DNA of 64,000 nt from a virus. Taxonomy: Duplodnaviria > Caudoviricetes. Shown piece by piece: positions 166-47,664 of the stretch (positions are counted from its first letter, which is position 1; the number at the start of each line of letters is the position of its first letter). The notes beneath the pieces were generated by a model. That model had not been told where the DNA came from. It searched no databases and worked only from the letters and a program-made list of their open reading frames with translations. The position numbers and the translations under genes were made by a program. The DNA is taken from IMG/VR virus record IMGVR_UViG_3300028886_001681, positions 32,001 to 96,000 of that record; one strand, 5' to 3'.

Positions 166-483
166 TCATTCTTTTACCTCTTTGGATGTTATATTACATT
201 TAAGATTTGTGCAAGCGTAAACATCGCTCGATTTGACAACATGTGAGCAAATGTCATAAGCGATTCTGTCAAAATATCCTTTCATATATGAGGCACATTC
301 CGAAAAAGTTCCTTTGTAGACTATCTTGCTTTGTTCCTCGCATTCACTTTCTTTGCAACAGTCTATTCCTTTCAATGGCTTGCCACTAACGCTCTTTGTC
401 GGATACCAATACACAACAAATTCATCGTTTGCGCCTTCATTTTCGCAATTTTCATTTGTATTTATTACAACATCCTCAATCAT
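166..483 (-). CDS. hypothetical protein
   Basis: 105-aa ORF overlapping the upstream ORF; part of a minus-strand gene array. Confidence 0.65.
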   Translation of the reverse strand: MIEDVVINTNENCENEGANDEFVVYWYPTKSVSGKPLKGIDCCKESECEEQSKIVYKGTFSECASYMKGYFDRIAYDICSHVVKSSDVYACTNLKCNITSKEVKE

Positions 484-665
484 TTATCTTCCTTCAAAAA
501 GTCCATAGCTCTTTGCCTTGCGTATTCGTCAGAGTTGTCCAACAAGTCTTGAATGATTGTCTTTGCGTATTCAAGTTGCTCTTCAACGCTCGTTGTCTTG
601 GCGTTTTCGTTTTCTTCCGCAAGAGCCATGCTTGCGCCTATTCCCCATAGTAAAGCACCCAACAT
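480..665 (-). CDS. small protein with EQLxxAKxII...FLKE module
   Basis: AAGGAG RBS; C-terminal module shared with ORFs 1976-2455 and 17763-18422. Confidence 0.65.
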   Translation of the reverse strand: MLGALLWGIGASMALAEENENAKTTSVEEQLEYAKTIIQDLLDNSDEYARQRAMDFLKEDK

Positions 666-992
666 TTATTCGCTCTCCTTTAGTTCTGGAACAGAAATGA
701 AGAAATATGCTTTCACTTCTTGCCAAGAAAAATTTCCTTTCCGAGATTCCCAAAATCTACCGTTATAAAAGCCAAAAGTTTTAATACCTCTTCCTAATAA
801 TAAAAGATATTCTTTTTTATCGGTTGGCAAATCTTTTTCATCTTTCACATAATGCCATTCATTAGCCTTGTTATAGCCGTATTCAATGCCTTTTTGGATG
901 AGTTCACAAACTTTATCAACTTGTATAAAATTTCCGCTATGAGTTCTGCAACCATTTTGTCGCATTATTTCTTCCGCTTTTTCCTCAAACAT
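666..992 (-). CDS. DUF551-like hypothetical protein
   Basis: GYNKANEWH...DLP motif shared with 53275-53688; GAGG RBS. Confidence 0.65.
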   Translation of the reverse strand: MFEEKAEEIMRQNGCRTHSGNFIQVDKVCELIQKGIEYGYNKANEWHYVKDEKDLPTDKKEYLLLLGRGIKTFGFYNGRFWESRKGNFSWQEVKAYFFISVPELKESE

Positions 993-1010
993 AATTCACT
1001 CCTCTGCGCG

Positions 1011-1325
1011 TTATGGCATCTCGCACCATTCGATTACATCGTCGATTTTATCGTAATCGCTAGACCACCAACTATTTGAATGCGTGCTATACCAACTCAT
1101 CTGTTTGCCACCATCCGAAGTCTTAACAATGAATTGCTTCGCGTTTTCCTTCGGCAAGTCGTTTGGGTTTTTCCGCAAGTCGCGCCACTTCGGTCTGCCC
1201 TCGTTAAGCCCCGCAAGATAAGCATATTTCAAGTCAGTTTCTGTATATAACTTTTCACCGCTTTCTGTAGTGTCTAAAGGTACTTCATTATTACAGTATT
1301 CTTCCGCCATTTCTTTATCTGTCAT
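1011..1325 (-). CDS. DUF551-like hypothetical protein
   Basis: WRDLRKNPNDLP...VIEWCEMP motif. Confidence 0.65.
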   Translation of the reverse strand: MTDKEMAEEYCNNEVPLDTTESGEKLYTETDLKYAYLAGLNEGRPKWRDLRKNPNDLPKENAKQFIVKTSDGGKQMSWYSTHSNSWWSSDYDKIDDVIEWCEMP

Positions 1326-1401
1326 TTCACAATCCTTTCTAGTGTAAATCCAAAGAAATATCCAAATATGAATATTGCGCCCATAGTTAATATTGTTTCA
1401 T

Positions 1402-1791
1402 TCATACGCTTTGATACTCCATCGATTCCATTACCGCAATGTTCCGCTCGGTAGGCTCCAAGCCAAGCCTTCTGCACAAGCGAATTCGCAAGTAATGCTT
1501 TGCGTAAGCGAAGATAAAGTTCGCTAGCGCGTAACAAACATTATTCACGACCAAAACAACGGCAATCTTGATGAGTTCGTTGACTTTGCATTTGTCAAGC
1601 AATAACGTTCCAAAAATGAGAAACACGCCTGACAACGCTTGGTAAGGGAACGACTCGAATAGAACGGTCTTGGCGCTTCTAATTTCGTTGTAAACAGGCG
1701 TCTTTCCCTTTTCGATTCCGTCAAGAACCCTGTCAAATTCCGCCTTGTAATTCTTCAAGTCTTTCTCTTTTCGCATAAAAAGATAATACAT
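1402..1791 (-). CDS. membrane protein (2 TM)
   Basis: Start moved to MYYLF after a GGAGG RBS; two hydrophobic segments. Confidence 0.6.
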   Translation of the reverse strand: MYYLFMRKEKDLKNYKAEFDRVLDGIEKGKTPVYNEIRSAKTVLFESFPYQALSGVFLIFGTLLLDKCKVNELIKIAVVLVVNNVCYALANFIFAYAKHYLRIRLCRRLGLEPTERNIAVMESMEYQSV

Positions 1792-1975
1792 TTTAACCCT
1801 CCGTTCCGCCCATGGCAAACCACATCTTCGTCATTCCTTCGCCTCGCTTTCTGGCCTATAAATTAAAACGGAATGTCCTTGTTTTAACAACCGAACTATC
1901 CGCATTATCCATTTAAAAAATGAATGGTGATGTTCACCGTAGAACCTTCACGCTCGCCATAACTCAATGCGTATA

Positions 1976-2455
1976 TCATTCTTTCACATCCTCCAAGAAT
2001 CGCTCCGCTTCTTTTCTAACTTTATAATACGAACTTTTATCCGAACCGTTCATTTCCCAATACATATTGTTCTTTTCTTCCTCAAGAAGTTTTGCTAGAA
2101 TTTCTTTTGCTTTGGCAAGATTTTCGTTAATGTCCATTAAATCTTTTTCGTACTGTTCATTTTGCGCAAGAAAAGCGTTTCGTTCATTTCTTAAAGTAAA
2201 TTGTTGCTTTTTCAGTTCCGCAACTTCCTTTTCCAAACTTTTGAGATGCGCCCAACTAGTTCCTTCATCTGTTGCTTGCAGATATTTTGTTCTAAGTTCC
2301 TCGTTTTCCTTTTCAAGAGAAACTATGCGATTGAATGTTTCTTCAACGTGCTCCTTCCAATACTCCATGCTTGCGGGGCACATTCCGCTCGCTTGACCTT
2401 TCACATAAGCAATCAATTCTTTCGTCGCTAGTCGTTTTAACTCTTCGCCAGTCAT
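1976..2455 (-). CDS. coiled-coil hypothetical protein
   Basis: Heptad-rich; AKAKEIL...AERFL module. Confidence 0.65.
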   Translation of the reverse strand: MTGEELKRLATKELIAYVKGQASGMCPASMEYWKEHVEETFNRIVSLEKENEELRTKYLQATDEGTSWAHLKSLEKEVAELKKQQFTLRNERNAFLAQNEQYEKDLMDINENLAKAKEILAKLLEEEKNNMYWEMNGSDKSSYYKVRKEAERFLEDVKE

Positions 2456-2988
2456 TCCTTCACCTCAACAATTTCAAACCCTTTCAATACAAGTTCGTCT
2501 AATTCTTTATCTTTTTCGTCATACCAATCTTGTTCATCGCCCAACAAAGAATGCATCAATTTTCTTGTAAAAGCAAACAACCGAATCCAATCTGAAATTC
2601 CACTACAGATATGATAATACGAATCTTTTTCCGTTTCGTCAACTAAAGATTCATCATAATCTTCTCCATAGAACCACCAATGCGTGCAGAAATCCCATTT
2701 CCAATGCACTTTCGCAATAAATTTCTTTTCATAAATATCCGAATAATCACTTTCCCAAGAAATCGCTTTATAAATTATAAAATCGCAAAAATATTTGTCC
2801 AACTTTTCAATTTTCACCCCAAAAATCGGACATCCGTTAGAATCTTTCAAATGATATTTTTTCATTTTATTTTCTTCCGCTTCTGACTTCAGAACTTGTA
2901 TCAGAGCCTGTTGCTTCCAATGCTTGGACCCGTTCTCTTTCATTTCGTCAATGGTCATTCCTTTACCTCCACAATTTTGACAAATCAT
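2452..2988 (-). CDS. hypothetical protein (possible fusion of two ORFs)
   Basis: GGAGG RBS; N-terminal CxxC; internal MKKYHL start. Confidence 0.6.
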   Translation of the reverse strand: MICQNCGGKGMTIDEMKENGSKHWKQQALIQVLKSEAEENKMKKYHLKDSNGCPIFGVKIEKLDKYFCDFIIYKAISWESDYSDIYEKKFIAKVHWKWDFCTHWWFYGEDYDESLVDETEKDSYYHICSGISDWIRLFAFTRKLMHSLLGDEQDWYDEKDKELDELVLKGFEIVEVKE

Positions 2989-3006
2989 ATCATTCCTCCA
3001 ATTTTG

Positions 3007-3192
3007 CTAATATTCGCTTAACCCCAATCCAACCGCTCGCCATTTGACCGCAGTCGGCGACACTTTGAATCGTTCCGCGACCGCTTCCAAGCGTCCACAT
3101 TTCTCTTTCCATATCTGTCTGAATAACTTTTCCGGCATAAGAAAAGCGGCGGCAAAAGTATTGGCCTCTTTTTCAAGCTCTTCTTCATTCAT
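3007..3192 (-). CDS. C-terminal part of ImmA/IrrE-family metallopeptidase domain
   Basis: EKEANTFAAAFLMP...FKVS..AVKWR signature; no HExxH. Confidence 0.7.
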   Translation of the reverse strand: MNEEELEKEANTFAAAFLMPEKLFRQIWKEKCGRLEAVAERFKVSPTAVKWRAVGLGLSEY

Positions 3193-3466
3193 TCCTCAAT
3201 CTCCTTTCATCGCAGGCTTTCAAATAAATGTCCCACATCTTGTCCGCGTACTTCTCGTCGTTCTTCCATCTGAAATATCTGATTGCCGACAAGGGAATCC
3301 ATAGGGGAGACAAGACGAGATGAAAGGCGAAAGCGAACAAGTTCACGAGAAAAATCGTCGTTTCCTTAAAGCCGTCCGCGATGTTGCATAAATCCTCTCC
3401 GAAAGTTTCAGCAACCATGTTCTTGTTTCTTTTTGTGCAGTATTCTACAAATTCTTCCTTGGTCAT
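3185..3466 (-). CDS. small membrane protein
   Basis: One hydrophobic segment; overlaps neighbouring ORFs. Confidence 0.6.
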   Translation of the reverse strand: MTKEEFVEYCTKRNKNMVAETFGEDLCNIADGFKETTIFLVNLFAFAFHLVLSPLWIPLSAIRYFRWKNDEKYADKMWDIYLKACDERRLRNE

Positions 3467-4302
3467 ACCTTCGCCTCGCTATCTTTCTGTTTCGCTTGTT
3501 CAATTTTTTCTTTACTCAATTTTGTAGCATAAGCAAAATCTTCATCACTCATAGATAAATATTGCCAATCCCATTCATTCATTCCTTCCTTCACCTCCAT
3601 TCCGCAAGGGCTGTCGTTAAATGCTTTTTCGATAGGCCAGTGATATTTGTTTATCCTGTCCTTAACCTTAATATAATTTAATTTTAGTTCTTTACACCAT
3701 GCTGCTAAATGTTGCGTCTTTCCTTTATAGGTTATCATTTTATAACGAGCGTTTCCTTTTGTTTCAAACGCTTTTTCAACAGACCAATGAGAATCATTAA
3801 GTCTAGATATAACCGTGTAATATTTTAGATTTAATTCTCTGCACCAATCGGCAAGCGATTGAGTCCGCCCCTTATATGTTATAAGCCTTAGGCTATGATT
3901 TCCTTTTGTTTCAAACGCTTTGTCAACAGACCAACGCAAGGAGTTTATTCTGCATTTTATTTTATGATAATCAAGCCCAAGTTCCTCACACCATTGACTT
4001 AAAGGCTTTGTTTCGCCTTTATATTTTATTAAATGATTCCGTCTTTGGTTATTATTCTGTTGTTTTCTTGTCGCCCATCTACAATTCTCAGGACTGTAGC
4101 CTTTGTTATTGTCGATACGGTCAATGCTTAAATCATCATTATAACCGTTTGACAACGCCCATTCGTAAAATAAATTAGGTTTTTTCAACCACTCATCACA
4201 TATTGTTATCCCTCTTGCACCATAATCCTTAAAATTTTGGGCTTTAGGGTTGTAACATCTATTTTTCATTGCTTGATAAATTCTTTTTAATCTTTCATTC
4301 AT
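3463..4302 (-). CDS. HNH homing endonuclease with three repeated DNA-binding modules
   Basis: MKNRCY..YGARGI..SIDRIDNNKGYSPENCRWAT; 3x ITYKG.T..L..WC.EL repeats; AT-rich. Confidence 0.85.
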   Translation of the reverse strand: MNERLKRIYQAMKNRCYNPKAQNFKDYGARGITICDEWLKKPNLFYEWALSNGYNDDLSIDRIDNNKGYSPENCRWATRKQQNNNQRRNHLIKYKGETKPLSQWCEELGLDYHKIKCRINSLRWSVDKAFETKGNHSLRLITYKGRTQSLADWCRELNLKYYTVISRLNDSHWSVEKAFETKGNARYKMITYKGKTQHLAAWCKELKLNYIKVKDRINKYHWPIEKAFNDSPCGMEVKEGMNEWDWQYLSMSDEDFAYATKLSKEKIEQAKQKDSEAKV

Positions 4303-27970: not shown

Positions 27971-28653
27971 GCCTTTCTTCTCCTTTTCTTGCTCGTCGTT
28001 CCGTTCAAACTCTTGTCGATTTCCTTTTGAGCCATCGACGAGTACTTGCTCGTGATTTTCTGAATCGACTCCATTTTCTCAATTTCGTCCTTTTGGTAGT
28101 TATTCAACCGCTCCATGGTCTCCTCATTGTCGAAGTAGAAGTCCTTGCCTCCCAAGCACTCCTCAATTTCCTTGTCGGTCATGAAGTTCTTGTAGAGTTC
28201 CTTGAAATGGCGAACCGCCACCTTCTTGTCGAAGTCGTACTTGGCGACCAACTCATTCCACTTGCCGTATCCGCAGTCAGTCCAACAATGAACCATGCAA
28301 TAGGCGTGCTTTGAAATTTCCCAAGCGTTGGCTCCCAACATAATCATCGTCGCTGCGGAACAACAAGCCCCTTCAATTGAAACCACTACATCCGCGTTCG
28401 ACGACCTCAACTCGTCGTATATGTTCCAAGCGGTGTCAGCCAACCCTCCGTAGCAGTTGATGTGGATTGTGACCAAGTCTCCGCTTCGGCAGTTTCCGAC
28501 CGCTCTCAAGAAATCGATGTAGTTCTCGATTTCGGCGATTTCTCCGCTCAAGTAAAAGTCGATTTCCTTGCGCTCGCCAGTGTCCTTGATTTGAAGGGGG
28601 TTGTTCTGAAATTCCTCCGCTCCGTCAATTACTGTTGAAATTCTTTTCTTCAC
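27967..28653 (-). CDS. clpP: ClpP-family protease
   Basis: IHINCYGG, GACCSAATMI (catalytic Ser), CMVH. Confidence 0.85.
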   Translation of the reverse strand: MKKRISTVIDGAEEFQNNPLQIKDTGERKEIDFYLSGEIAEIENYIDFLRAVGNCRSGDLVTIHINCYGGLADTAWNIYDELRSSNADVVVSIEGACCSAATMIMLGANAWEISKHAYCMVHCWTDCGYGKWNELVAKYDFDKKVAVRHFKELYKNFMTDKEIEECLGGKDFYFDNEETMERLNNYQKDEIEKMESIQKITSKYSSMAQKEIDKSLNGTTSKKRRRKA

Positions 28654-29366
28654 TTTAAGTCGTCCTCCTCTCTCGATTTTTTATAATCCTCTATTATTTT
28701 ATCCTTCAATCCTTCCAAACCCTTGGGCATTCGTCCGCAACACTTGATTTCCTTGCAGTAACCGATGTCCTCGCACTTGGGGACGAAGTAGTTGTCGCAA
28801 ATCCACTTCCATTCCTCGGAGTAGGCGGAAAGTTTATCCTTGATTTCCTTGGACAATTCCCTAATCTCATTGTAAGCCCTAGAGCAAAGCCTTTCGTTCA
28901 TGAAGTGAATCAATGCTCGCAAGTTTATCTTCCACACGATTTTCGTGTCCATTCCCAACGGAAGGATGTTGGCTATGTCCTCTTTCGGCATTCCCAATTC
29001 CGCCAATTTTCCGTATGAGTCGGAAATCTCGTCCATCACCGTCTCGTAAATTTCTAGTTGCTTGGAGGATACTCCTTTGGGAGTATAGTAGTTGAAGTTC
29101 TCATAGTCAACATACCTCGTGGACGATTGTAAATAAGTGGTTCCCACTATATGACGACCCAATTCTCTGATACATCTTGCGGATTTACAATCTATAATAA
29201 ATACCACATCCACATATTCCATTATTCGCCCGTGTCCGCTATTGATGCATGACTTGGCTCGTTTTATATTTTTATCAACATCGTCAATATTAGAATTCCA
29301 ACAAACCCCAGCGATTTTTCCAATATAATTCAATGGATTTTTTTGGCAAGACTCAATCAATATCAT
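28650..29366 (-). CDS. thyX: flavin-dependent thymidylate synthase
   Basis: SGH...EY, RH-x7-S-x-R-Y (RHIVGTTYLQSSTRY), NLR.L..F...R...RA..EIR. Confidence 0.92.
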   Translation of the reverse strand: MILIESCQKNPLNYIGKIAGVCWNSNIDDVDKNIKRAKSCINSGHGRIMEYVDVVFIIDCKSARCIRELGRHIVGTTYLQSSTRYVDYENFNYYTPKGVSSKQLEIYETVMDEISDSYGKLAELGMPKEDIANILPLGMDTKIVWKINLRALIHFMNERLCSRAYNEIRELSKEIKDKLSAYSEEWKWICDNYFVPKCEDIGYCKEIKCCGRMPKGLEGLKDKIIEDYKKSREEDDLK

Positions 29367-30586
29367 TTATCTCTCCTTTCAGATACATAATCATTCAAAT
29401 CATAAGCGTTTTGTTCAAAATGTTCAAACGCATCAAATAAATCATCTTTCTTTAAAATTTTGACATTATTGACAATCATACAGTTTTGTTTTTCAATCAA
29501 CAATTCATTTTTATTATAAGGATTGATTAATTCACCTTTTTCGTTAAAAAAATGGTCGCCTTTTATTTCAACCAATTCTCCATTTATCAAAAAATCAGGT
29601 TCGTATGAGTGTACTTTTCCATCTATTTCATAAGTTATGTTGGTTTTGGGATGAAAAATAAAATCAATTTTATTATCTTTCAGATACATATAATAAATTA
29701 ATTCCCACGAACTATCAAATTTATTATTATCATATTCGAATTTATATTGATTCCATTGCTTTCCGTATTTTTCGATACATGTTTTTCTTATTTTATCTCT
29801 AACCCATTCTAATTTATTAATATTATCTACTCCATATTTCGCTAATGAAGATTCCGCTTTATGTTGTTTTACAACATCGCTTGAATTTGGACTTTCGACT
29901 CCGTATTTCAATAGGCTAGTTTGTTTGGTTTTTTCTTTATAATCTTTCGTTCCTAAATATTCTTCACTTCCATATTTAATTAGATTTGTTTGTTTTTTCT
30001 TTTTTTTAAATTCCTCAACTTGGCTCACATTTTCAATATTGTTGCCATAGCGACTTTTTAATGTATTTTTAGTGTGCTCTTTCATAATTTCAGATTGAGT
30101 TGTATATTCAACTCCGTATTTTTTAAGATTTGTTTCTTTGGTTTTTTTCATTTTTAATTCATTGAAATTTTCCAAAGAACCATATTTTTCAATAATGGTT
30201 TTATTTCTTTTTTCGGCGGAAATTTTATTAAAATTTTCCAAAGAGCCAAAACGCTCGATTATTTTATTTTTGCGATTTTTTATATTTTTTTCAGTATTCA
30301 TTGTACACGAAACCCCATATTTTGTTAAATTTGTTTCTTTTGCTTTATCGGCATTTACATAATTTTCATTTCCATATTTTAATAATTTAGTATGTTTTAC
30401 TGAACAAACCATACATCGAGAAATATTATTTCTATTTTTTATATTTTTTGCAAATTTTGAAAATGGTTTTCCACAAACGCAACAAAGACCTTCAAACATT
30501 ATGTTTGATGATTTTTTAAACAAAATATCATCGTTTACAATATCATTTATATTCGATGAAGTTATTGTGATAATATTATATTCCAT
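29363..30586 (-). CDS. putative homing endonuclease (KETNL.KYG repeats, C-terminal PD-(D/E)xK-like nuclease)
   Basis: Many T...KYGV repeats; DSSWE...YEPDF...VEIKG; very AT-rich. Confidence 0.75.
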   Translation of the reverse strand: MEYNIITITSSNINDIVNDDILFKKSSNIMFEGLCCVCGKPFSKFAKNIKNRNNISRCMVCSVKHTKLLKYGNENYVNADKAKETNLTKYGVSCTMNTEKNIKNRKNKIIERFGSLENFNKISAEKRNKTIIEKYGSLENFNELKMKKTKETNLKKYGVEYTTQSEIMKEHTKNTLKSRYGNNIENVSQVEEFKKKKKQTNLIKYGSEEYLGTKDYKEKTKQTSLLKYGVESPNSSDVVKQHKAESSLAKYGVDNINKLEWVRDKIRKTCIEKYGKQWNQYKFEYDNNKFDSSWELIYYMYLKDNKIDFIFHPKTNITYEIDGKVHSYEPDFLINGELVEIKGDHFFNEKGELINPYNKNELLIEKQNCMIVNNVKILKKDDLFDAFEHFEQNAYDLNDYVSERRDK

Positions 30587-31517: not shown

Positions 31518-31691
31518 TCAAGCGTTCGGATTGTTTCTCATGCAATCGCTGATTCTTTTGACTTCCACAATCTTGTTGTTGGGAAACTTCTTCCTAGCCT
31601 CTAGTTCCGCGCAATATCCGTCGGCAGTCACACAGACATATTCGGAAGGCTTTCCGCTTTCGTCAACCATTTCGACTTTATACTTATACAT
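31518..31691 (-). CDS. small hypothetical protein
   Basis: MYKYKVEM start with GGAGG RBS inside the TopIB 3' end. Confidence 0.55.
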   Translation of the reverse strand: MYKYKVEMVDESGKPSEYVCVTADGYCAELEARKKFPNNKIVEVKRISDCMRNNPNA

Positions 31692-32406
31692 TGGGGTATT
31701 TCCTCCAATAATCGGAAGGCACATTGTTAGCCCAAACATTGAATCTTTCGACCAAAGACTTGGAATAAATCGTCGTAGGCTCGTGGTTCGTATCCTTGCA
31801 CAATGAATATGCCACTTTCGGATTTGAGTAGTTTGTCATCGCGGTATTCAAAGCGATGTTTCTGTTTTCCGAATTGGATTTGGCCAATTTCTTAATGTCC
31901 TTGAATTTCTGTTCCGCCCCCTTCAACTTGTCGTTCAATTCTTTTCTTTGAGCGGATATTTCGCTCAATTTCTCCTTGAGAAGTTTTCCGTCAAGGCAAG
32001 ATTTGTAGTCGGATTCTAGTCCGTCAAGTTTCGCCAATTTTTTCTCTATTGAATTTTTGGACTTGTCGAACGAAGCCTTCGCTTTCTTGGTTTTGTTTTT
32101 CGTGGATTCGTCAATTTTTTCGTTTTGCTCTTTGGTTAGCGTTTTCTTATGGTTGAGTTTAATCGTGACCACTTTAGCGCAATCCATGTATTGATTCTTG
32201 AACTGTTTGTCGGTCAGATTGCTCCAATCTCTCTTTTGAATTTCTTCCGCAAGCAAAGATGTGCCGAAATAAGTTCTGAATGTTTTTGCTGTTGCGAACT
32301 CATATTTATTTTTTATTGTTTCCAATAACGAATCGTCAATTTCAAATTTATCGACCGATAGCAAGTTCTTCAAGCGTTTTGGTAATTTTGTCATAATTAT
32401 AAGCAT
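31684..32406 (-). CDS. DNA topoisomerase IB, C-terminal part (linker and catalytic Tyr)
   Basis: AKTFRTY, KLNH, coiled-coil linker, ALNTAMTNYSNPK; AAGGAGGG RBS 5 nt before ATG at 32406. Confidence 0.88.
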   Translation of the reverse strand: MLIIMTKLPKRLKNLLSVDKFEIDDSLLETIKNKYEFATAKTFRTYFGTSLLAEEIQKRDWSNLTDKQFKNQYMDCAKVVTIKLNHKKTLTKEQNEKIDESTKNKTKKAKASFDKSKNSIEKKLAKLDGLESDYKSCLDGKLLKEKLSEISAQRKELNDKLKGAEQKFKDIKKLAKSNSENRNIALNTAMTNYSNPKVAYSLCKDTNHEPTTIYSKSLVERFNVWANNVPSDYWRKYPNV

Positions 32407-33292
32407 ATTTGCCCTCCTTAATATTATTATATACTGTTTGTGTGTATTCGTCAAAATAATTTTTATAAACTTTTATAAAATCATTCCAAGCAATATCAAT
32501 GTTAAATTTATTATATAAAAATTGTTGTAATGCTTTATTTGATTTTATTTTTAATTTTACTTTTTCATTTTTAGCGATGTTTTTTTCACCCTTCATGGAA
32601 TCACTTCGTATTTTTTTACTTTCTTCAGTGATTCCATTTTTGCGTTTTTCAGAATAAATTTTTTTATCTCCATCGGATAAAGAATCCCAAAACATTTTAT
32701 TTTTTTCAGATTTATTTTTCTTTTCTTTTTCATTCCAATGTTTCCCTTTCATTGGATTGATATAATTTTTTTGTTTTGCTAATTTTTTATGAGTTTTGCT
32801 TGATTTTTCTTTCAATTCATTTGTCCACATTTCTTTAACTTTTTGTTTATGAAAATCTTTAACTTTTTCAAAGCCATCTCTTTGATGTTGTCTTAATGTA
32901 TCGAATTCTTCTTTTGATAAAGATTTATACCATGATTTTGTAGATTGAGATTTTTTTAATTTTTGTTCATCAGTTATATATAAATTATAATTAGATTCCC
33001 CACCTTCGGTCATGTTGTATCCAAAATTTAAATCATTGGAATGAAAAAGTTTAATTAATCTTTTTTCCCAATAATTTAAGTCATAAGTTTCAATTAATAT
33101 TTCAAAAGAAAAATTTTTAACGCCATATTTTCTTATTGCTTTATGAATATAACAATCATCTTTTGAATTTATATGAGAAATCCATCTATTGTGAATATCA
33201 ATTGATTGACCGATATAAACTTTATGATTTATGAGATTTTCAATTTTATAAATTCCACTAATATGATTATTATATATTTTATGTCTACTCAT
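32348..33292 (-). CDS. GIY-YIG homing endonuclease inserted in the TopIB gene
   Basis: SGIYKI.N.IN.KVYIGQS..I..RW..H, GYN...GG; AT-rich; overlaps both TopIB parts. Confidence 0.92.
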   Translation of the reverse strand: MSRHKIYNNHISGIYKIENLINHKVYIGQSIDIHNRWISHINSKDDCYIHKAIRKYGVKNFSFEILIETYDLNYWEKRLIKLFHSNDLNFGYNMTEGGESNYNLYITDEQKLKKSQSTKSWYKSLSKEEFDTLRQHQRDGFEKVKDFHKQKVKEMWTNELKEKSSKTHKKLAKQKNYINPMKGKHWNEKEKKNKSEKNKMFWDSLSDGDKKIYSEKRKNGITEESKKIRSDSMKGEKNIAKNEKVKLKIKSNKALQQFLYNKFNIDIAWNDFIKVYKNYFDEYTQTVYNNIKEGKYAYNYDKITKTLEELAIGR

Positions 33293-34469
33293 TTAAATAA
33301 TCCATTACATTATATTTAACAATCAAACCTATCGCTAATTTAATGTCATTTTCATTTTTAGATAACAATAGTTCGTCAATTTTTATTTTTAAGCATACAT
33401 TATTTAAAAATTCGTTCACATCGTTAGACGATATTTTGTCGAACGCTCTGTCTTTTGGGCTTTTGTCTTTCAAGCATTTTTTCAACGAATCAAAAGCGTC
33501 CTCATCAACTTTCATCGTGTTGTCCATTACCATTGAGTCTTTACCCAAGAAATGCAAACGGACTTTTTTGCTTTCCAACAAAATGATGTTCTCAACTTTA
33601 AGGGTGGACGCTCCGACGACCCCATTGTTCCGTTTGTCCTCGTTGCCCGCTCGTATACCAAATTTAGAGATTATGTAGGCACAACAACCAATTTGCCGTT
33701 TCTTGGCGTTGTCGGACAAGTAAGCGTCTTTTATCGCCTTGGTGACCTTTCTGATGTTTTGTTGCAGAAGCCTAGCATTCTCGAATTTTTCCTCGTCGGA
33801 ATCCGCCTTGAATAAAGACTTGTTGGAAAACCAAATCGCCTTTTGAATCGTGACGCTAGGATTTCCAATCAACCGCTCGGTGTAGGTGGCAATTGAAGAG
33901 GTGTCCTTGAACGACACATCCTTCCATTTGTGAGTTCCGTAATCGCACGGAAACGGATAAGACGAATTGATTGACACATCTTCAGGCATTACATCTTCCA
34001 CAACAAATCCGCTCCATTCGCAAGCACCGCGCCCTATGAATATTCGGCTAGACTCGATTAATGAGTTTCCTATCTCAACCTTCTCTCCGTCAACCAAAGC
34101 GTAGCCGTAGGTTTCCTTCCATTTTTTGTTTTCTTCCGCTATTTCCTTTCTATGTTCTTTATTGTAAAGTTTCTTTTCTTCCGCGTATTTTTCTTTAATC
34201 GCTTTCATTCTTGACAGAACCGTTTCGAAGTCGGACGGAAATTTCAATTCCTTCTGTTCCTTCGTCAGTTCCGTTTTTAATGACTTATAAAAATTCTTTT
34301 GGTAGACATTTTCGCTTTTGTATTTGTCCGCCAAAGTAGACCACATGAAGAGCCATTTCACCGCTCGATATGACAATCTCATTTTATTCTCGTTGGAATA
34401 ATATTCGTCAATGTAGGGTAATTCCTTGGGGAATTTCACGCACCCTTCAATTAATTTGAGTTCTTTCAT
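33285..34469 (-). CDS. DNA topoisomerase IB, N-terminal/core part
   Basis: YGYALVDG...IGN...F.GRG...PEDVSIN; KFE.AR; GIRAGNE; GASTL; FLGKDS. Confidence 0.9.
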   Translation of the reverse strand: MKELKLIEGCVKFPKELPYIDEYYSNENKMRLSYRAVKWLFMWSTLADKYKSENVYQKNFYKSLKTELTKEQKELKFPSDFETVLSRMKAIKEKYAEEKKLYNKEHRKEIAEENKKWKETYGYALVDGEKVEIGNSLIESSRIFIGRGACEWSGFVVEDVMPEDVSINSSYPFPCDYGTHKWKDVSFKDTSSIATYTERLIGNPSVTIQKAIWFSNKSLFKADSDEEKFENARLLQQNIRKVTKAIKDAYLSDNAKKRQIGCCAYIISKFGIRAGNEDKRNNGVVGASTLKVENIILLESKKVRLHFLGKDSMVMDNTMKVDEDAFDSLKKCLKDKSPKDRAFDKISSNDVNEFLNNVCLKIKIDELLLSKNENDIKLAIGLIVKYNVMDYLNE

Positions 34470-43239: not shown

Positions 43240-44046
43240 ATGAAGGTAAGAAAAAGAGACGGAAGATTTGCGAATTTCAACGAATCAAAAATTGCGAACG
43301 CCATTAAATTGGCGTCTGAAAATTCAAAAAGCGACAACAAAATAACAGACGAACAAATAAAAAACACCCTTACTTTTGTAAAGTTATCTATTGAAGGTAA
43401 AGATGAGGTTAGTGTCGATGACATTCATGACTTGGTTGAAAAATCTTTGAAAAAAGAAAACAAGGATGTCGCCAAGTCATACATCGAATACAGAAAAAAC
43501 CGAGAACTTGACAGATTTAGAAATCTTGAAATTACAAAAAGAATTTTTGAAAAATTGAACGCGACGAATGTCATGAATCAAAACGCAAACCTCGACGAAT
43601 TTTCGTTCGGAGGAAGAAAGGGCGAAGCGGATTCCGCATTGTTGAAGGAGTTAGCCTTGAACTATTTGATTTCTCCCAAATTCGCCAAAAACCACAATAA
43701 CAATAGAATTTATATACACGACCTAGACTCTTATTTTGTCGGAATGCATAACTGTTTATCGCTTCCCATTGACGATTTGTTAAGAAACGGAATGAAAACT
43801 AGACAAGTTTTCATTAGACCCGCCAACAGTTTGTCGACCGCAATGCAACTTGTCGCAGTGGCGATTCAATTACAATCTTTGCAACAGTTCGGAGGTGTGG
43901 CGGTAACTCACATCGATTGGACTATGGTTCCTTACATTCGAAAATCGTTTTTCAAGCATTATAATGATGGCCTTAAATACGCGGAAGGCAAATCGGATAA
44001 AGAAATTGAAAAAATCGACAATGGGATTTTAGAAAAAAGTAAGTGA
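43240..44046 (+). CDS. nrdD: anaerobic ribonucleotide reductase, N-terminal part (NrdD-a)
   Basis: ATP-cone (VRKRDG), NQNANLDE, IYIHDLD, HNCL, QFGGV. Confidence 0.93.
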   Translation: MKVRKRDGRFANFNESKIANAIKLASENSKSDNKITDEQIKNTLTFVKLSIEGKDEVSVDDIHDLVEKSLKKENKDVAKSYIEYRKNRELDRFRNLEITKRIFEKLNATNVMNQNANLDEFSFGGRKGEADSALLKELALNYLISPKFAKNHNNNRIYIHDLDSYFVGMHNCLSLPIDDLLRNGMKTRQVFIRPANSLSTAMQLVAVAIQLQSLQQFGGVAVTHIDWTMVPYIRKSFFKHYNDGLKYAEGKSDKEIEKIDNGILEKSK

Positions 44047-44074
44047 TTTCCCAATCGGATTAACTATTTGTATT

Positions 44075-45409
44075 ATGAAAGAAACATTGATAGAAATATT
44101 TAAGAAAAAAGGCATTCTCAATAAAAATAACGGACGAAAATTCTGTTATAAAAATTATTGGGACGACGAATGCGAATCGTTGTGGGGAAAATATTCTTCT
44201 AATTATAGAAGTAATGATGAAGCGTGGTATTGCTTGTCTAAAAATGTAGAACCTCCGAAATGTCCATTGTGTGATAAGTTATGTAGATTTGTGGGCGGAA
44301 AGCGAGGTTATAAAATAACTTGCGAAACTTGTGACCCAAATAAAGTTCCGTCTAAATTAAAACATTTTTCCAAGACTATTTCTAAAAGAACAGAAGAAGA
44401 AAAAAGGAAAATCTTTGAAAAAAGAAAACAAACTAATTTAGAATTATACGGAGATGAAAATTTTACATTGTATGGCTCTAAATCTTTCAAAGAAAACATG
44501 TTGAATAAATATGGCAATGAAAATTACTCTAATCACGAAAAAGCAAAAGAAACTAGTATCGAACGATATGGTGTGGATTGCAATTTTAAAAGGGAAGGAT
44601 TTCAACAATATTCTGCGAATAAAAAACGAGAACTATACGGCAACGCCTCTAATTATGAAAAAACCATGAAAACCAACATGAAGAGGTATGGTGTTCCCCA
44701 CATAGGACAATGTAGAGAAATAATAAATAAAAATAATCTCGAAAAACAAGAAAAATATGATAAATTCGAAATTGAAAACGATTGCACATCGAGGAGTAAA
44801 TTAAAAAAATTATACGGTGTAGGATGGTGGTCTCTCGGTATAGAATATCTTGAATACATGGGGCATTATTTTGTACCTAATGAATTTTTAAAAGATATAA
44901 TAGAATATTCTAGCGAAGGTACGCACACCAACAGTTATATTTCTAAACGAGAAGTTGAGCTTAGAAATTACATTAAAGAAATTTATGATGGTGAAATTCT
45001 CAACAATGTGACCAATGTCGTAAAAAATAACAATCATAGATATTTTGAATTAGATTTGTATTTGCCTCGATTAAAAATTGCATTTGATTTTGACGGAATG
45101 TATTGGCATTCCATAAAATTTAAAGATAAATATTATCATCAAAGAAAAAGTGTATGTTGTTTGGAGCAAGGGGTTAGATTGGCTCATATACAAGAAGATG
45201 AATGGGTGAATAATCGTGAGGTTTTGTGCGATAAAATAAGACAATTAATTTTTGAAAACAAAACATTTAATGATGGTTGTTTCCCACCTTCGTTGAACGA
45301 TTATAATTTTTCTGAACCTAGAAAGATTATGATTGATAAATTTGGTAAAAAAACACTTGACGAAAGCCAGTGTAATTTAATATATTATGATACAGGAGTT
45401 ATTTTATGA
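44075..45409 (+). CDS. homing endonuclease (Hef/Vsr-like) splitting nrdD
   Basis: Zn finger, T...YG repeats, ELD.Y.P.LKIAF.FDG.YWHS...EDEW; TAACTATTT 5 nt before ATG. Confidence 0.82.
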   Translation: MKETLIEIFKKKGILNKNNGRKFCYKNYWDDECESLWGKYSSNYRSNDEAWYCLSKNVEPPKCPLCDKLCRFVGGKRGYKITCETCDPNKVPSKLKHFSKTISKRTEEEKRKIFEKRKQTNLELYGDENFTLYGSKSFKENMLNKYGNENYSNHEKAKETSIERYGVDCNFKREGFQQYSANKKRELYGNASNYEKTMKTNMKRYGVPHIGQCREIINKNNLEKQEKYDKFEIENDCTSRSKLKKLYGVGWWSLGIEYLEYMGHYFVPNEFLKDIIEYSSEGTHTNSYISKREVELRNYIKEIYDGEILNNVTNVVKNNNHRYFELDLYLPRLKIAFDFDGMYWHSIKFKDKYYHQRKSVCCLEQGVRLAHIQEDEWVNNREVLCDKIRQLIFENKTFNDGCFPPSLNDYNFSEPRKIMIDKFGKKTLDESQCNLIYYDTGVIL

Positions 45410-45558
45410 GAGATGTGATTGATGTGTCCATTGATGACGAAAAGTACAAAAAGCATAAAAAAGCGTATCAATACGCCATGGATATGCTACAAAAAGAAGT
45501 TCACCAATCGATAGAAGGATTGTTGCACAATTTAAATTCATTGCAAAGCAGGTCGGGT
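45406..45558 (+). CDS. nrdD: NrdD-b exon 1 (not in ORF track)
   Basis: CAGGAG RBS; ATGA overlap with the endonuclease stop; MRDVID...AYQYAMDM...HNLNSLQSRSG. Confidence 0.88.
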
Positions 45559-45819
45559 AGACTTTAGATTGCCCCATTCATCAGTAATGATGAATTGATA
45601 ATTCGGTAAAATCGGTGAAGACTAAATCATTAAGATATGTTGATACCGAGATAAGCATTCGAATTGCGAAAGGTCGAATGACATTGTAGAGCATAGAAGG
45701 TGAATAAATATAATCCTTCCACGAGTACCGAACATCCAAATATTTGGATGAAAATGTATGCCGAACTTATGAGAAATCATAAGAAGTATGGATAAAAAGC
45801 CATACGATAACAAATATTG
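45559..45819 (+). mobile_element. group I intron (261 nt, no ORF)
   Basis: Removal restores QSRSG|NQLPF; 5' exon ends in U, intron ends in G; P1 GGGU/GCCC; P7-like GCAUA/UAUGC. Confidence 0.88.
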
Positions 45820-47664
45820 AATCAATTGCCGTTTTCGTCCATAAATTACGGAACTTGCACATTGAAAGAAGGTCGTTTACTAACCAAAGAAATTTTGGAA
45901 TGCACAATCGATGGTGTTGGAAATCACGCGACTTCCATTTTCCCATGCCAGATTTTTCAATTGATGGACGGTGTAAATGTGAAAGAAAGCGACCCTAATT
46001 ATGATTTATTCAGATTAGCAATCGAATGTACATCAAAACGCTTATATCCTAATTATGTAAACTGTGATTGGAGCAACGACCAAGGATATAATAAAGATGA
46101 CCCTAGAACTTATCCTAGTACAATGGGTGCGGTTCGTGGAGACGAAATTGTTTCTATTAAAATCAACGATGTTGAATTTAATGATATTTCGATTAAAAAA
46201 GCAATAGAAATGATTAATGCATATACTTCTAATGTCGAATGGATTAACAATGAATCTGATAAAATTGGATATACAAAACATAAACGAGTAAAAGATTGTC
46301 AGATTAAGTGTCAATCAAAATGGGTTAGAATTCTCAACATCGAATTCAACGACAAATCATCCCCCTTAAAATTATACGAAGTCACTTTTGATAAAAACGA
46401 AACCGAGCAAACTCTCCATATCACGGAAGACCATCCTTTACACACTAGCAGAGGAAGAGTCGAGGCTAGGGATTTGAAGGTCGGAGATGTGATTTATGAC
46501 TCCATTAGCGGTTACGGTTACAAAATCGTTTCCGTAAAAGAAACTAACGAAAAATGCGACACTTACGACTTCACTACAGAAACAGACATGTTTGATTTGA
46601 GCGGAATCGTCTCTCATAACTGTAGGACTTATAGCAGTAGCGACATAAACGCGGAGTCTGCGGAATTGTCGCATATTAAGGACGGACGAGGAAACATAAC
46701 ACCTGCGACTATAGTTTTGCCAACAATAGCCATGGAATCAAAAAAGAAAATGAAAGACGATACTGATGAAAAGGTTTTGATTGAACTTTTCATGAAAAAT
46801 CTCGAAGACGCGATAATCGACTGTAAAGACGAATTGATTGAAAGATTCAATTACATTTGCTCGCAAAATCCAAAATCCGCTTCCTTCATGTATGAAAACG
46901 GAACATTCTACGGATATAAAGAAAGCGAGGGAATTCGTTCAGCGTTGAAACACGGCAGTTTGGCGGTGGGACAAATAGGCTTGGCGGAAACTTTGCAAAT
47001 TTTAATTGGAACAGACCAATGCACGAAAAAAGGAATGGAGTTGGCAAAGAGAATTGAGGAATTATTCAAGCGAAAGTGTTCTGAGTTTAAGAACGAATAT
47101 AAATTGAATTTTGGAGTTTATTACACACCTGCGGAAGGATTATCAAAGACTTCATTCGATAAATTTGTGAAAAAATACGGTCTTATTGAAAATGTCACTG
47201 CATATAAAGATGAAAACGGAAAATTACAACCTAGAGGATATTTCACGAATTCGATTCATGTTCCTGTTTGGAAGGAAATTTCTCCGTTTGAAAAAATAGA
47301 CATAGAATCCCAATTAACGAATTATTCTTCGGCAGGTTGCATTACTTATGTTGAAATCGGAGACAACGCTTCCAACAACTTGAAAGCCCTCGAAGAACTC
47401 GTATTGTACGCCAAGTCGAAAGATGTTCCATATTTCGCATTGAATCTTCCGTTGTCGCATTGCAAAAAATGCGGTTGCGACGAAAACATTGGTTTTGAGG
47501 AAAGTTGTCCTAAATGTGGAGCGGATAAAGATGAAATTGAACATCTCGCTCGCGTGACAGGTTATCTCTCCACGGACTACAAGCATTTTAATTTAGGAAA
47601 GCAACACGAAGTCAAAGACCGATATGTTCATGTGAATAAATTGTCGTCATGGAAACAAAAATGA
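45820..47664 (+). CDS. nrdD: NrdD-b exon 2 (contains intein)
   Basis: PFSSINYG, IFP.QIF, STMG|CRT, GRGN, TPAE, YFTNS, CxxC, RVTGYL glycyl-radical motif. Confidence 0.93.
   Translation, partial: NQLPFSSINYGTCTLKEGRLLTKEILECTIDGVGNHATSIFPCQIFQLMDGVNVKESDPNYDLFRLAIECTSKRLYPNYVNCDWSNDQGYNKDDPRTYPSTMGAVRGDEIVSIKINDVEFNDISIKKAIEMINAYTSNVEWINNESDKIGYTKHKRVKDCQIKCQSKWVRILNIEFNDKSSPLKLYEVTFDKNETEQTLHITEDHPLHTSRGRVEARDLKVGDVIYDSISGYGYKIVSVKETNEKCDTYDFTTETDMFDLSGIVSHNCRTYSSSDINAESAELSHIKDGRGNITPATIVLPTIAMESKKKMKDDTDEKVLIELFMKNLEDAIIDCKDELIERFNYICSQNPKSASFMYENGTFYGYKESEGIRSALKHGSLAVGQIGLAETLQILIGTDQCTKKGMELAKRIEELFKRKCSEFKNEYKLNFGVYYTPAEGLSKTSFDKFVKKYGLIENVTAYKDENGKLQPRGYFTNSIHVPVWKEISPFEKIDIESQLTNYSSAGCITYVEIGDNASNNLKALEELVLYAKSKDVPYFALNLPLSHCKKCGCDENIGFEESCPKCGADKDEIEHLARVTGYLSTDYKHFNLGKQHEVKDRYVHVNKLSSWKQK
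46129..46620 (+). mobile_element. mini-intein (164 aa, Ala1) at the NrdD catalytic Cys
   Basis: Interrupts STMG|CRT; block B TEDH, block F TYD, terminal SHN, +1 Cys. Confidence 0.88.

Follow-up and report, generated by a model that had tools for sequence, protein, structure and literature searches.

A long-form topoisomerase IB in two fragments

The window analyzed here is a 64,000-nucleotide stretch of viral DNA, corresponding to bases 32001-96000 of a 160-kb IMG/VR contig that is estimated to be 77% complete. On the minus strand of positions 31684-34469, it carries three consecutive open reading frames (ORFs), the outer two of which encode the halves of a type IB topoisomerase (TopIB) and flank an ORF for a GIY-YIG homing endonuclease. 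The N fragment (33285..34469, minus strand) has 394 amino acids (aa) and comprises the CAP module (Topoisom_I_N) together with the initial portion of the catalytic core. The C fragment (31684..32406, minus strand) has 240 aa when counted from its best start, an ATG at 32404-32406, and the C ORF in full (31684..32454, minus strand) has 256 aa. The initial annotation, made from the letters alone, had given exactly these outer coordinates, and the strings that it quoted were all present, with YGYALVDGEKVEIGN, FIGRG and PEDVSIN in the N ORF and ALNTAMTNYSNPK in the C ORF.

Pfam searches assigned the N ORF to Topoisom_I_N (PF02919, residues 24-202, E of 8.5e-26; cut-off of 25 bits), in agreement with the N-terminal core region proposed initially, and to the first two thirds of Topoisom_I (PF01028, profile positions 2-143, E of 5.9e-33). 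The final third of the same profile (positions 140-225) was matched by the C ORF with an E of 1.8e-10, followed by Topo_C_assoc (PF14370) at residues 182-249 of the 256-aa ORF (E of 5.9e-12). The two halves together hence match all three families expected of the "joined protein" of the initial annotation, but they do not form one ORF, as the GIY-YIG ORF intervenes. Short-form enzymes (about 310-450 aa) are without the linker and have a small N-terminal domain (PF09266-like), for which no Pfam match was obtained in the window's halves at E values up to 1. The stretch is thereby confirmed to encode a long-form TopIB of the eukaryotic and archaeal TOP1 type.

An unsplit homologue of 568 aa, L003, is encoded in a related 218-kb IMG/VR phage contig (L003/L004), and the window's halves are 78-81% identical to it (78% over residues 1-355 for the N half). 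Residues 17-558 of L003 aligned with the 70-kDa construct of human TOP1 with an E of 7.7e-50, and strong matches were also obtained with archaeal CsTOP1 (6z01, 2.6e-46) and the large subunit of the Leishmania enzyme (2b9s_A, 1.5e-34), whereas the variola topoisomerase matched over about 110 residues at 1.9e-05 and the vaccinia enzyme likewise at about 1e-5. The AlphaFold2 model of L003 had a mean predicted local distance difference test (pLDDT) score of 91.5 and showed two long helices at residues 420-465 and 469-508. Its top Foldseek match was human TOP1 with topotecan (1k4t_A), with template modeling (TM) scores of 0.79/0.79 in either normalization over 581 columns, which is essentially the full length, and it superposed on the human CAP module. 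In contrast, the short enzymes of variola and Deinococcus radiodurans covered about 230 columns of the fold, namely the catalytic domain, with query-normalized TM scores of about 0.3; the short TopIBs of poxviruses (vaccinia/variola), mimivirus and bacteria share with the window's enzyme the homologous catalytic domain, the pentad and the chemistry. The assignment to the long rather than the short type was therefore upheld by both sequence and fold.

The CAP module is followed by the catalytic core, then by a linker of two antiparallel helices with about 90 residues, and finally by the C-terminal domain with the tyrosine. The five catalytic residues R, K, R, H and Y are complete in the window and invariant across 26 aligned relatives, and the active site is divided between the fragments (all codons on the minus strand). 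R273 (codon 33651-33653) and K310 (codon 33540-33542), the equivalents of human Arg488 and Lys532, lie in the N fragment, while R44 (codon 32275-32277), H86 (codon 32149-32151) and, in the C-terminal domain, N192 and Y193 (Y codon 31828-31830) lie in the C fragment and correspond to Arg590, His632, Asn722 and Tyr723, respectively. The linker occupies about residues 92-180 of the C fragment (minus strand). In the AlphaFold2 model of this fragment (mean pLDDT of 83.7), its helices at 92-137 and 140-180 had pLDDT values above 90, which bears out the coiled-coil linker of about 90 aa that had been read between the catalytic His and Tyr.

Compared with human TOP1 (1K4T/1A36), the phage enzyme has the same CAP, catalytic core, coiled-coil linker, Tyr domain and catalytic pentad. 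However, the identity is only about 27-30%, and the phage enzyme lacks the long charged N-terminal extension of eukaryotes. The distance from His86 to Tyr193 in the C fragment is 107 residues, as opposed to 91 in the human enzyme by standard numbering, so that the linker is slightly longer. The C-terminus reads ...YW.KYPNV in place of the ...WAxD....F of labelled eukaryotic and giant-virus sequences, and the window's enzyme is encoded by a tailed phage and lies in two pieces in its genome. The archaeal long TopIB of Caldiarchaeum subterraneum (CsTOP1, 6Z01) likewise has no eukaryotic N-terminal extension and, as in the phages, archaeal enzymes span about 520-600 aa, but their identity to the phage type is at most 33%.

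By homology, the enzyme would clamp around duplex DNA and nick one strand through a 3'-phosphotyrosine link to Y193, assisted by R273, K310, R44 and H86; the nicked DNA would swivel and then be resealed. On these grounds we infer that it acts as an ATP-independent swivelase relaxing supercoils of both signs. Possible camptothecin sensitivity had also been raised initially on account of the long form, and the camptothecin-contact residues are indeed conserved in the alignment with human TOP1 (equivalents of F361, G363, R364, D533, T718 and N722). Yet the archaeal CsTOP1, also a long form, is camptothecin-resistant, and sensitivity depends on the dynamics of the linker together with those of the C-terminal part (PMC8748870). 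Because of this resistant long form, the sensitivity of the phage enzyme is not predictable, and the suggestion did not stand as an inference from the long form alone.

The mobile cassette and the fate of the split gene

The two TopIB halves are separated by a mobile gene-splitting cassette (32284..33404, minus strand) of 1,121 bp and 22.9% GC, which replaces 39 bp. In endonuclease-free alleles, these 39 bp encode GSICKDIPHLSNK, and the same loop is present in L003 and in another unsplit relative, P0008. A contig from the DNA sequencing run X4 joins position 32283 to 33405 with 39 other letters between them; since the run is of DNA and the joint holds other letters, this form is the endonuclease-free allele and not spliced RNA. 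The cassette is wholly coding. In order, it contains a 39-codon tail of the N fragment with its stop (33404-33285, residues 356-394 of the fragment), the GIY-YIG gene (33292-32348), a ribosome-binding site and a 41-codon head of the C fragment (32406-32284, residues 1-41), all on the minus strand. The endonuclease ORF (32348..33292, minus strand) encodes 314 aa, matched Pfam GIY-YIG at 2.3e-07 and matched the PHROG homing-endonuclease families phrog_314 and phrog_5123 at 1.6e-19 and 4.9e-14, respectively. It overlaps the ORFs on either side, with its start running over the N-fragment stop and its final 59 bp over the beginning of the C fragment. An AAGGAGG Shine-Dalgarno sequence (32413..32419, minus strand) lies 6 nt upstream of the in-frame C-fragment ATG at 32404-32406. 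In the L003 model, the insertion site is a surface loop between the helix 349-359 and the helix of the Arg590 equivalent. We considered whether the N-fragment tail and the C-fragment head are diverged duplicates (K-I-D-E-L-L-L versus E-I-D-D-S-L-L), and this was rejected, as BLASTP gave no alignment at E values up to 100.

Two relatives bear on the age of the insertion. P0008 is unsplit, and the window's two halves are 99% (197/199) and 100% (199/199) identical to it. P0007 has a core that is 78% identical to that of the window, while the cassette tail that closes its otherwise intact N fragment is 92% identical. Because P0008 is nearly identical yet unsplit and P0007 has the same tail on a diverged core, the cassette, judged from these alleles, is recent in the window's genome and is moving between diverged TopIB alleles. 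Some other phage-type proteins end or begin at unusual places: P0381 (306 aa) terminates directly after ...STLKVENI, P0342 and P0345 (265-266 aa, from two different clusters) have a Met start eight residues before the GKDS motif, and P0316 (225 aa) begins ...ITSNDVN, near the window's break. These may mark TopIB as a recurrent target of gene-splitting elements, or they may be truncations at contig ends.

The cassette has landed in the surface loop just before the Arg590-equivalent helix, cutting the TopIB gene in two, and supplies the stop and tail of the first fragment together with the ribosome-binding site, start and head of the second. We think that the split TopIB is probably made as two polypeptides that act as a two-subunit enzyme, which is likelier than a spliced intron, and that non-covalent reassembly of the 394-aa and 240-aa fragments into one enzyme is the most likely way in which it would work. 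Two kinds of known systems resemble this arrangement. The heterodimeric TopIB of kinetoplastids (Leishmania donovani, 2B9S) is a long form that works as two separately encoded polypeptides, and hence the TopIB fold tolerates splitting; the L003 model gave a TM score of 0.80 normalized to the target with 2b9s_A. The kinetoplastid break falls between the core, with R, K, R and H, and a small subunit with the Tyr only, whereas that in the window lies upstream of the second Arg, giving R,K / R,H,Y, and is caused by a mobile endonuclease cassette. The second kind comprises the genes-in-pieces of phages, namely Aeh1 nrdA-a/mobE/nrdA-b and T4 gene 39/60, a split topoisomerase II. There, too, an endonuclease gene divides an essential gene of DNA metabolism into two ORFs, relatives have unsplit alleles, and translation of the downstream half starts on its own. 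In the window, however, the target is TopIB, and the cassette replaces 39 bp and adds in-frame tail and head peptides. The ribonucleotide reductase in pieces of phage Aeh1 is reportedly functional, a finding attributed to Friedrich et al. in 2007, while function of the window's split enzyme would be by analogy.

The cassette might instead be a self-splicing group I intron with a homing endonuclease, in which splicing restores one full-length TopIB and the ORFs are exons. We regard this as unlikely. The insertion does adjoin a catalytic residue, the Arg590 equivalent, which is a classic target of intron and endonuclease homing, and endonucleases of the GIY-YIG type are typically carried by phage group I introns, as in T4 td/I-TevI. 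A spliced product with a loop length near that of the endonuclease-free allele can also be drawn, having NNVC plus about nine residues ending in ATAK as opposed to GSICKDIPHLSNK. However, the endonuclease ORF leaves only 112 nt and 64 nt of the cassette uncovered, which is too little for a group I core, and the low GC content is accompanied by folding energies at the cassette ends that were no better than those of shuffled sequences (z of -0.63, +0.32 and +1.15), with nothing unusual. The downstream half also has a perfect AAGGAGG-N6-ATG in its own frame, which would be superfluous for an exon. Furthermore, both ends of the cassette are open for about 40 codons in the frame of their own TopIB half, with a P of about 0.012 each from the composition. 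Rfam gave no intron match in the cassette even at an E of 10, but this carries no weight, as the nrdD control region was equally silent.

Other topoisomerases were searched for in five contigs with TopIB (G000, G001, G003, G007 and G010), which include ones that are 92% and 98% complete. Neither type IIA (PF00521) nor type IA (PF01131) enzymes were found in them, while the control matches were obtained in 12 and 14 genomes. Because these families were not detected while the controls matched, TopIB is probably the sole topoisomerase carried by these phages. This contrasts with T4, whose topoisomerase is type II, and Topo II is the only phage entry in a published distribution table (PMC2647321).

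Still less likely than an intron, in our view, is that the cassette has just inactivated TopIB, so that the two ORFs are decaying leftovers and a functional long TopIB exists only in the unsplit relatives. The near-identity of the halves with P0008 (99-100%) leaves no time for selection, TopIB might be dispensable, and the head and tail peptides are without detectable homologues, the head folding with low confidence. Nevertheless, the same tail on the diverged TopIB of P0007 indicates that the split arrangement has spread rather than decayed. The five catalytic residues are all intact, the cassette brings a ribosome-binding site, a start and in-frame extensions as in the genes-in-pieces of Aeh1, and no other topoisomerase was detected that could compensate.

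A large contractile-tailed phage from the bovine gut

The window's contig is that of a large, uncultured contractile-tailed phage from the bovine gut. It encodes a tail sheath (phrog_23 at 5.4e-15) and GroEL, as well as a UvsX/RecA-like recombinase, an ATP-dependent ligase, NrdD, thymidylate synthase, an SbcC-like protein, a DNA methyltransferase and many homing endonucleases. The same sheath occurs in the 218-kb relative with 75% identity. The TopIB gene lies in the middle of the contig, at 63-66 kb of 160 kb, among phage genes on the same strand, and the order after it is alike in the window and the relative, with two small conserved ORFs followed by thymidylate synthase. The Pfam families Gp23, Terminase_6C and Phage_sheath_1 had no match in the window's genome, whereas the PHROG sheath family did match; a search for giant-virus capsids gave no match anywhere, controls included, and is hence uninformative. 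The nearest cultured phages are very distant, with identities of at most 25% for the sheath and 34% for the recombinase. Bovine gut metagenome runs of several studies contain the stretch or part of it, including three DNA runs with contigs at 90-99% identity. In view of the Shine-Dalgarno sites and the gene content, we assume the host to be bacterial.

One might suspect that the gene was misplaced in assembly or binning, or that the phage captured it very recently from a eukaryote, archaeon or giant virus of the gut, given that the long form is otherwise known from eukaryotes, archaea and giant viruses, that ciliates, fungi and archaea occur in rumen and gut samples and that IMG/VR contigs can be chimeric, but this is effectively refuted: the gene is mid-contig with its flanking order kept in the independent 218-kb contig from another sample, the stretch recurs in DNA from the bovine gut sequenced in several studies, archaeal, eukaryotic and giant-virus proteins reach an identity of about 33% at best, the window's clade is set off from those groups by supported branches, and the C-terminal end YW.KYPNV is phage-specific and not the eukaryotic and giant-virus W-A-x-D...F.

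Taken together, the locus is very probably best explained as the long-form TopIB of a large contractile-tailed phage that has been split by a mobile cassette into two polypeptides. Several points weigh against this explanation or parts of it. The C-fragment head had low confidence in the AlphaFold2 model (pLDDT of 50-66). The sole RNA run with any of the stretch (X20) yielded two short contigs, none of them at the cassette borders. The insertion is so recent, at 99-100% identity to the unsplit allele, that selection on the split gene is not demonstrable from the window. PF00521 may miss very divergent phage type II enzymes, and speaking of a bacteriophage rather than an archaeal virus is an assumption.

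Distribution and phylogeny of phage long-form TopIB

The standard division of TopIB places the long form in eukaryotes and some archaea and the short form in bacteria, poxviruses and mimivirus, and reviews and structural papers list no phage TopIB at all (PMC2647321, PMC2621148, PMC8748870). Full-text searches of the literature found no published phage long-form TopIB, although their coverage was incomplete and a report elsewhere is possible. What is new here is a known enzyme family in an unexpected host range, plus a new way of being split.

The initial annotation had proposed a bacteriophage lineage with a long-form TopIB, and this turned out to be an understatement. Besides the window's contig, at least five tailed-phage contigs carry the long form, namely the 218-kb relative and four further contigs with a sheath. 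One of the latter, G003, is 388 kb long and 98% complete and has a T4-type Gp23 capsid gene (1.4e-71), a sheath and a long TopIB; G007, G008 and G010 each have a long TopIB and a sheath. A word-indexed protein search returned 49 relatives, and a full HMMER scan returned 1,323 cluster representatives at E values below 1e-3, 276 of them below 1e-30. About 80 of the best 150 clusters (50% identity) fell in the phage-type clades of an overview tree, in which only six contigs are confirmed as tailed phages and most members are phage by association only. In IMG/VR, a relative was found in 152 contigs, including many giant-virus metagenome-assembled genomes (MAGs) and several tailed phages. The C-terminal endings followed the same lines, being Y-P-N-V-like in the phage type and W-A-x-D...F in giant-virus and labelled eukaryotic sequences.

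When GTDB was scanned with peptide patterns of the phage type, none of 185,579 species yielded a relative. The long forms that do occur in prokaryote species genomes, in Bathyarchaeia, Nitrososphaeria, Methanomethylicia, one Aenigmatarchaeota MAG and a few Chloroflexota MAGs, are at most 33% identical to the phage type. In the GenBank phage collection, neither a megablast match to the stretch nor a tblastn match to the halves was found, which is weak evidence, as near relatives may be hidden. No PHROG family matched either TopIB half.

An unrooted maximum-likelihood tree was computed with IQ-TREE (LG+C20+F+G4 with posterior mean site frequencies, 101 rows, 543 columns). Its labels came from three named eukaryotes, named archaeal MAGs, one named marseillevirus, GVMAG contig names and hallmark-gene checks; most other rows are unnamed metagenomic proteins, and the eukaryotic sampling leans on those that cluster with the three named eukaryotes. 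A second protein search had been dominated by Bathyarchaeota, and a third had yielded giant-virus relatives for the most part, with no named eukaryotes beyond these three. The window's group, phage A, comprised 35 rows, including the sheath-bearing L013, on one side of a branch with support of 97/95. A second phage group, B, which includes the 388-kb T4-like phage, had support of 98/95, and a small group C, which includes the sheath-bearing L057, was sister to Archaea at 94/85. Archaea were recovered at 100/99, eukaryotes at 99/99, and eukaryotes with giant viruses at 100/100. Giant-virus long TopIBs, such as those of Marseillevirus LCMAC202 and the GVMAG contigs of nucleocytoplasmic large DNA viruses, are also virus-encoded and have the three Pfam domains. 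However, they group with eukaryotes and have the eukaryotic-type C-terminus, neither of which holds for the phage genes, and they belong to another virus realm and presumably another host domain. The window's clade lies outside the archaeal clade as well.

A rooted tree of 72 rows was computed with seven short Chloroflexota TopIBs as the outgroup. The long forms, the window's included, were monophyletic at 100/100, separated from the short forms by a branch of 1.67. Phage A (100/99), Archaea with group C (98/98) and Eukarya with giant viruses (100/99) formed separate clades, and the root fell inside a phage B grade. The position of the root among phage sequences is a hypothesis and not a result, as the long outgroup branch may attract fast-evolving phage rows. 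These trees argue firmly that the phage long TopIB does not cluster with the short bacterial TopIB and that recent capture from within the Archaea, eukaryotes or giant viruses sampled does not account for the phage genes. A single branch separating the three phage groups from all other rows was not rejected by the approximately unbiased test (p of 0.32), and we therefore make no claim of several independent acquisitions by phages.

The relevance to the origin of TopIB that had been suggested initially is sustained by the depth of the phage clades, which are nested neither in Archaea nor in Eukarya. A bolder reading, which we consider doubtful, is that tailed phages are an old and diverse reservoir of long-form TopIB that was not derived from Archaea or Eukarya, and that the enzyme there also tolerates a new R,K / R,H,Y split by a mobile cassette that brings its own expression signals. 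If this reading were true, the archaeal, eukaryotic and giant-virus TOP1 would go back to a virus-borne enzyme or have a common ancestor with one, and the long debate on a viral origin of topoisomerases would gain direct material from the phage genes. A diverse set of large tailed phages with the long form changes the known distribution of the family. The phage branches also provide new deep material for rooting the TOP1 tree, and they bear on whether TopIB was inherited vertically in Archaea and Eukarya or exchanged with viruses. At about 560-570 aa and lacking a disordered N-terminal extension, the unsplit phage proteins are compact TOP1s of the long form; they might express easily and could be of use in mechanistic studies and in studies of camptothecin-class inhibitors. 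The split allele, for its part, is a natural experiment on where the TopIB fold can be cut.

Some observations concern the smaller groups of long forms. The members of group C are L057 and L041, from IMG/VR contigs of 189 kb and 131 kb, respectively, and P0346; the contig of L057 has a sheath at 6.9e-84, and the C-terminus of the group is archaeal/eukaryote-like (...W-A). Group C may represent viruses of archaea or a separate exchange. TopIB was found in 62 of the 301 Chloroflexota genomes searched, a tally that takes in two unpublished genomes, G158 and G186, on which no claim made here depends and which did not supply the outgroup loci, and most of these enzymes were of the short type with 360-450 aa. 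The Chloroflexota/Anaerolineae MAGs G011, G012, G015 and G028, however, carry a long-form TopIB (Topoisom_I_N E of 1e-70) nested inside the archaeal clade, and the long-form loci are L126 and L168 (ORFs of 759-809 aa) and L170 and L172 (about 570-596 aa). Either archaea-to-bacteria transfer or bin contamination could account for them.

Other features were noted around TopIB and elsewhere in the window. In the NrdD region (43240-47664), which had no Rfam intron at gathering scores or at E values up to 1, the NrdD homology begins only at residue 262 of the ORF at 45817-47664 (plus strand), and an ORF for a 444-aa homing endonuclease (44075-45409) lies upstream of it, which is consistent with another interrupted gene. 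A second endonuclease insertion is found close to TopIB, where a 407-aa homing-endonuclease-like ORF (29363-30586, minus strand; phrog_3339 and phrog_12131) separates the thymidylate synthase gene (28650-29366) from the two small conserved ORFs that lie downstream of TopIB. The L003 contig has no counterpart of this gene, and this insertion is hence likewise recent. Upstream of TopIB, the L003 contig has three ORFs with CxxxCxxC motifs (183-3780, plus strand) that resemble radical-SAM/SPASM proteins, with a fourth ORF without the motif between the second and third of them. These radical-SAM-like ORFs are absent upstream of the window's TopIB, where a 124-aa ORF and a non-coding stretch are found instead.

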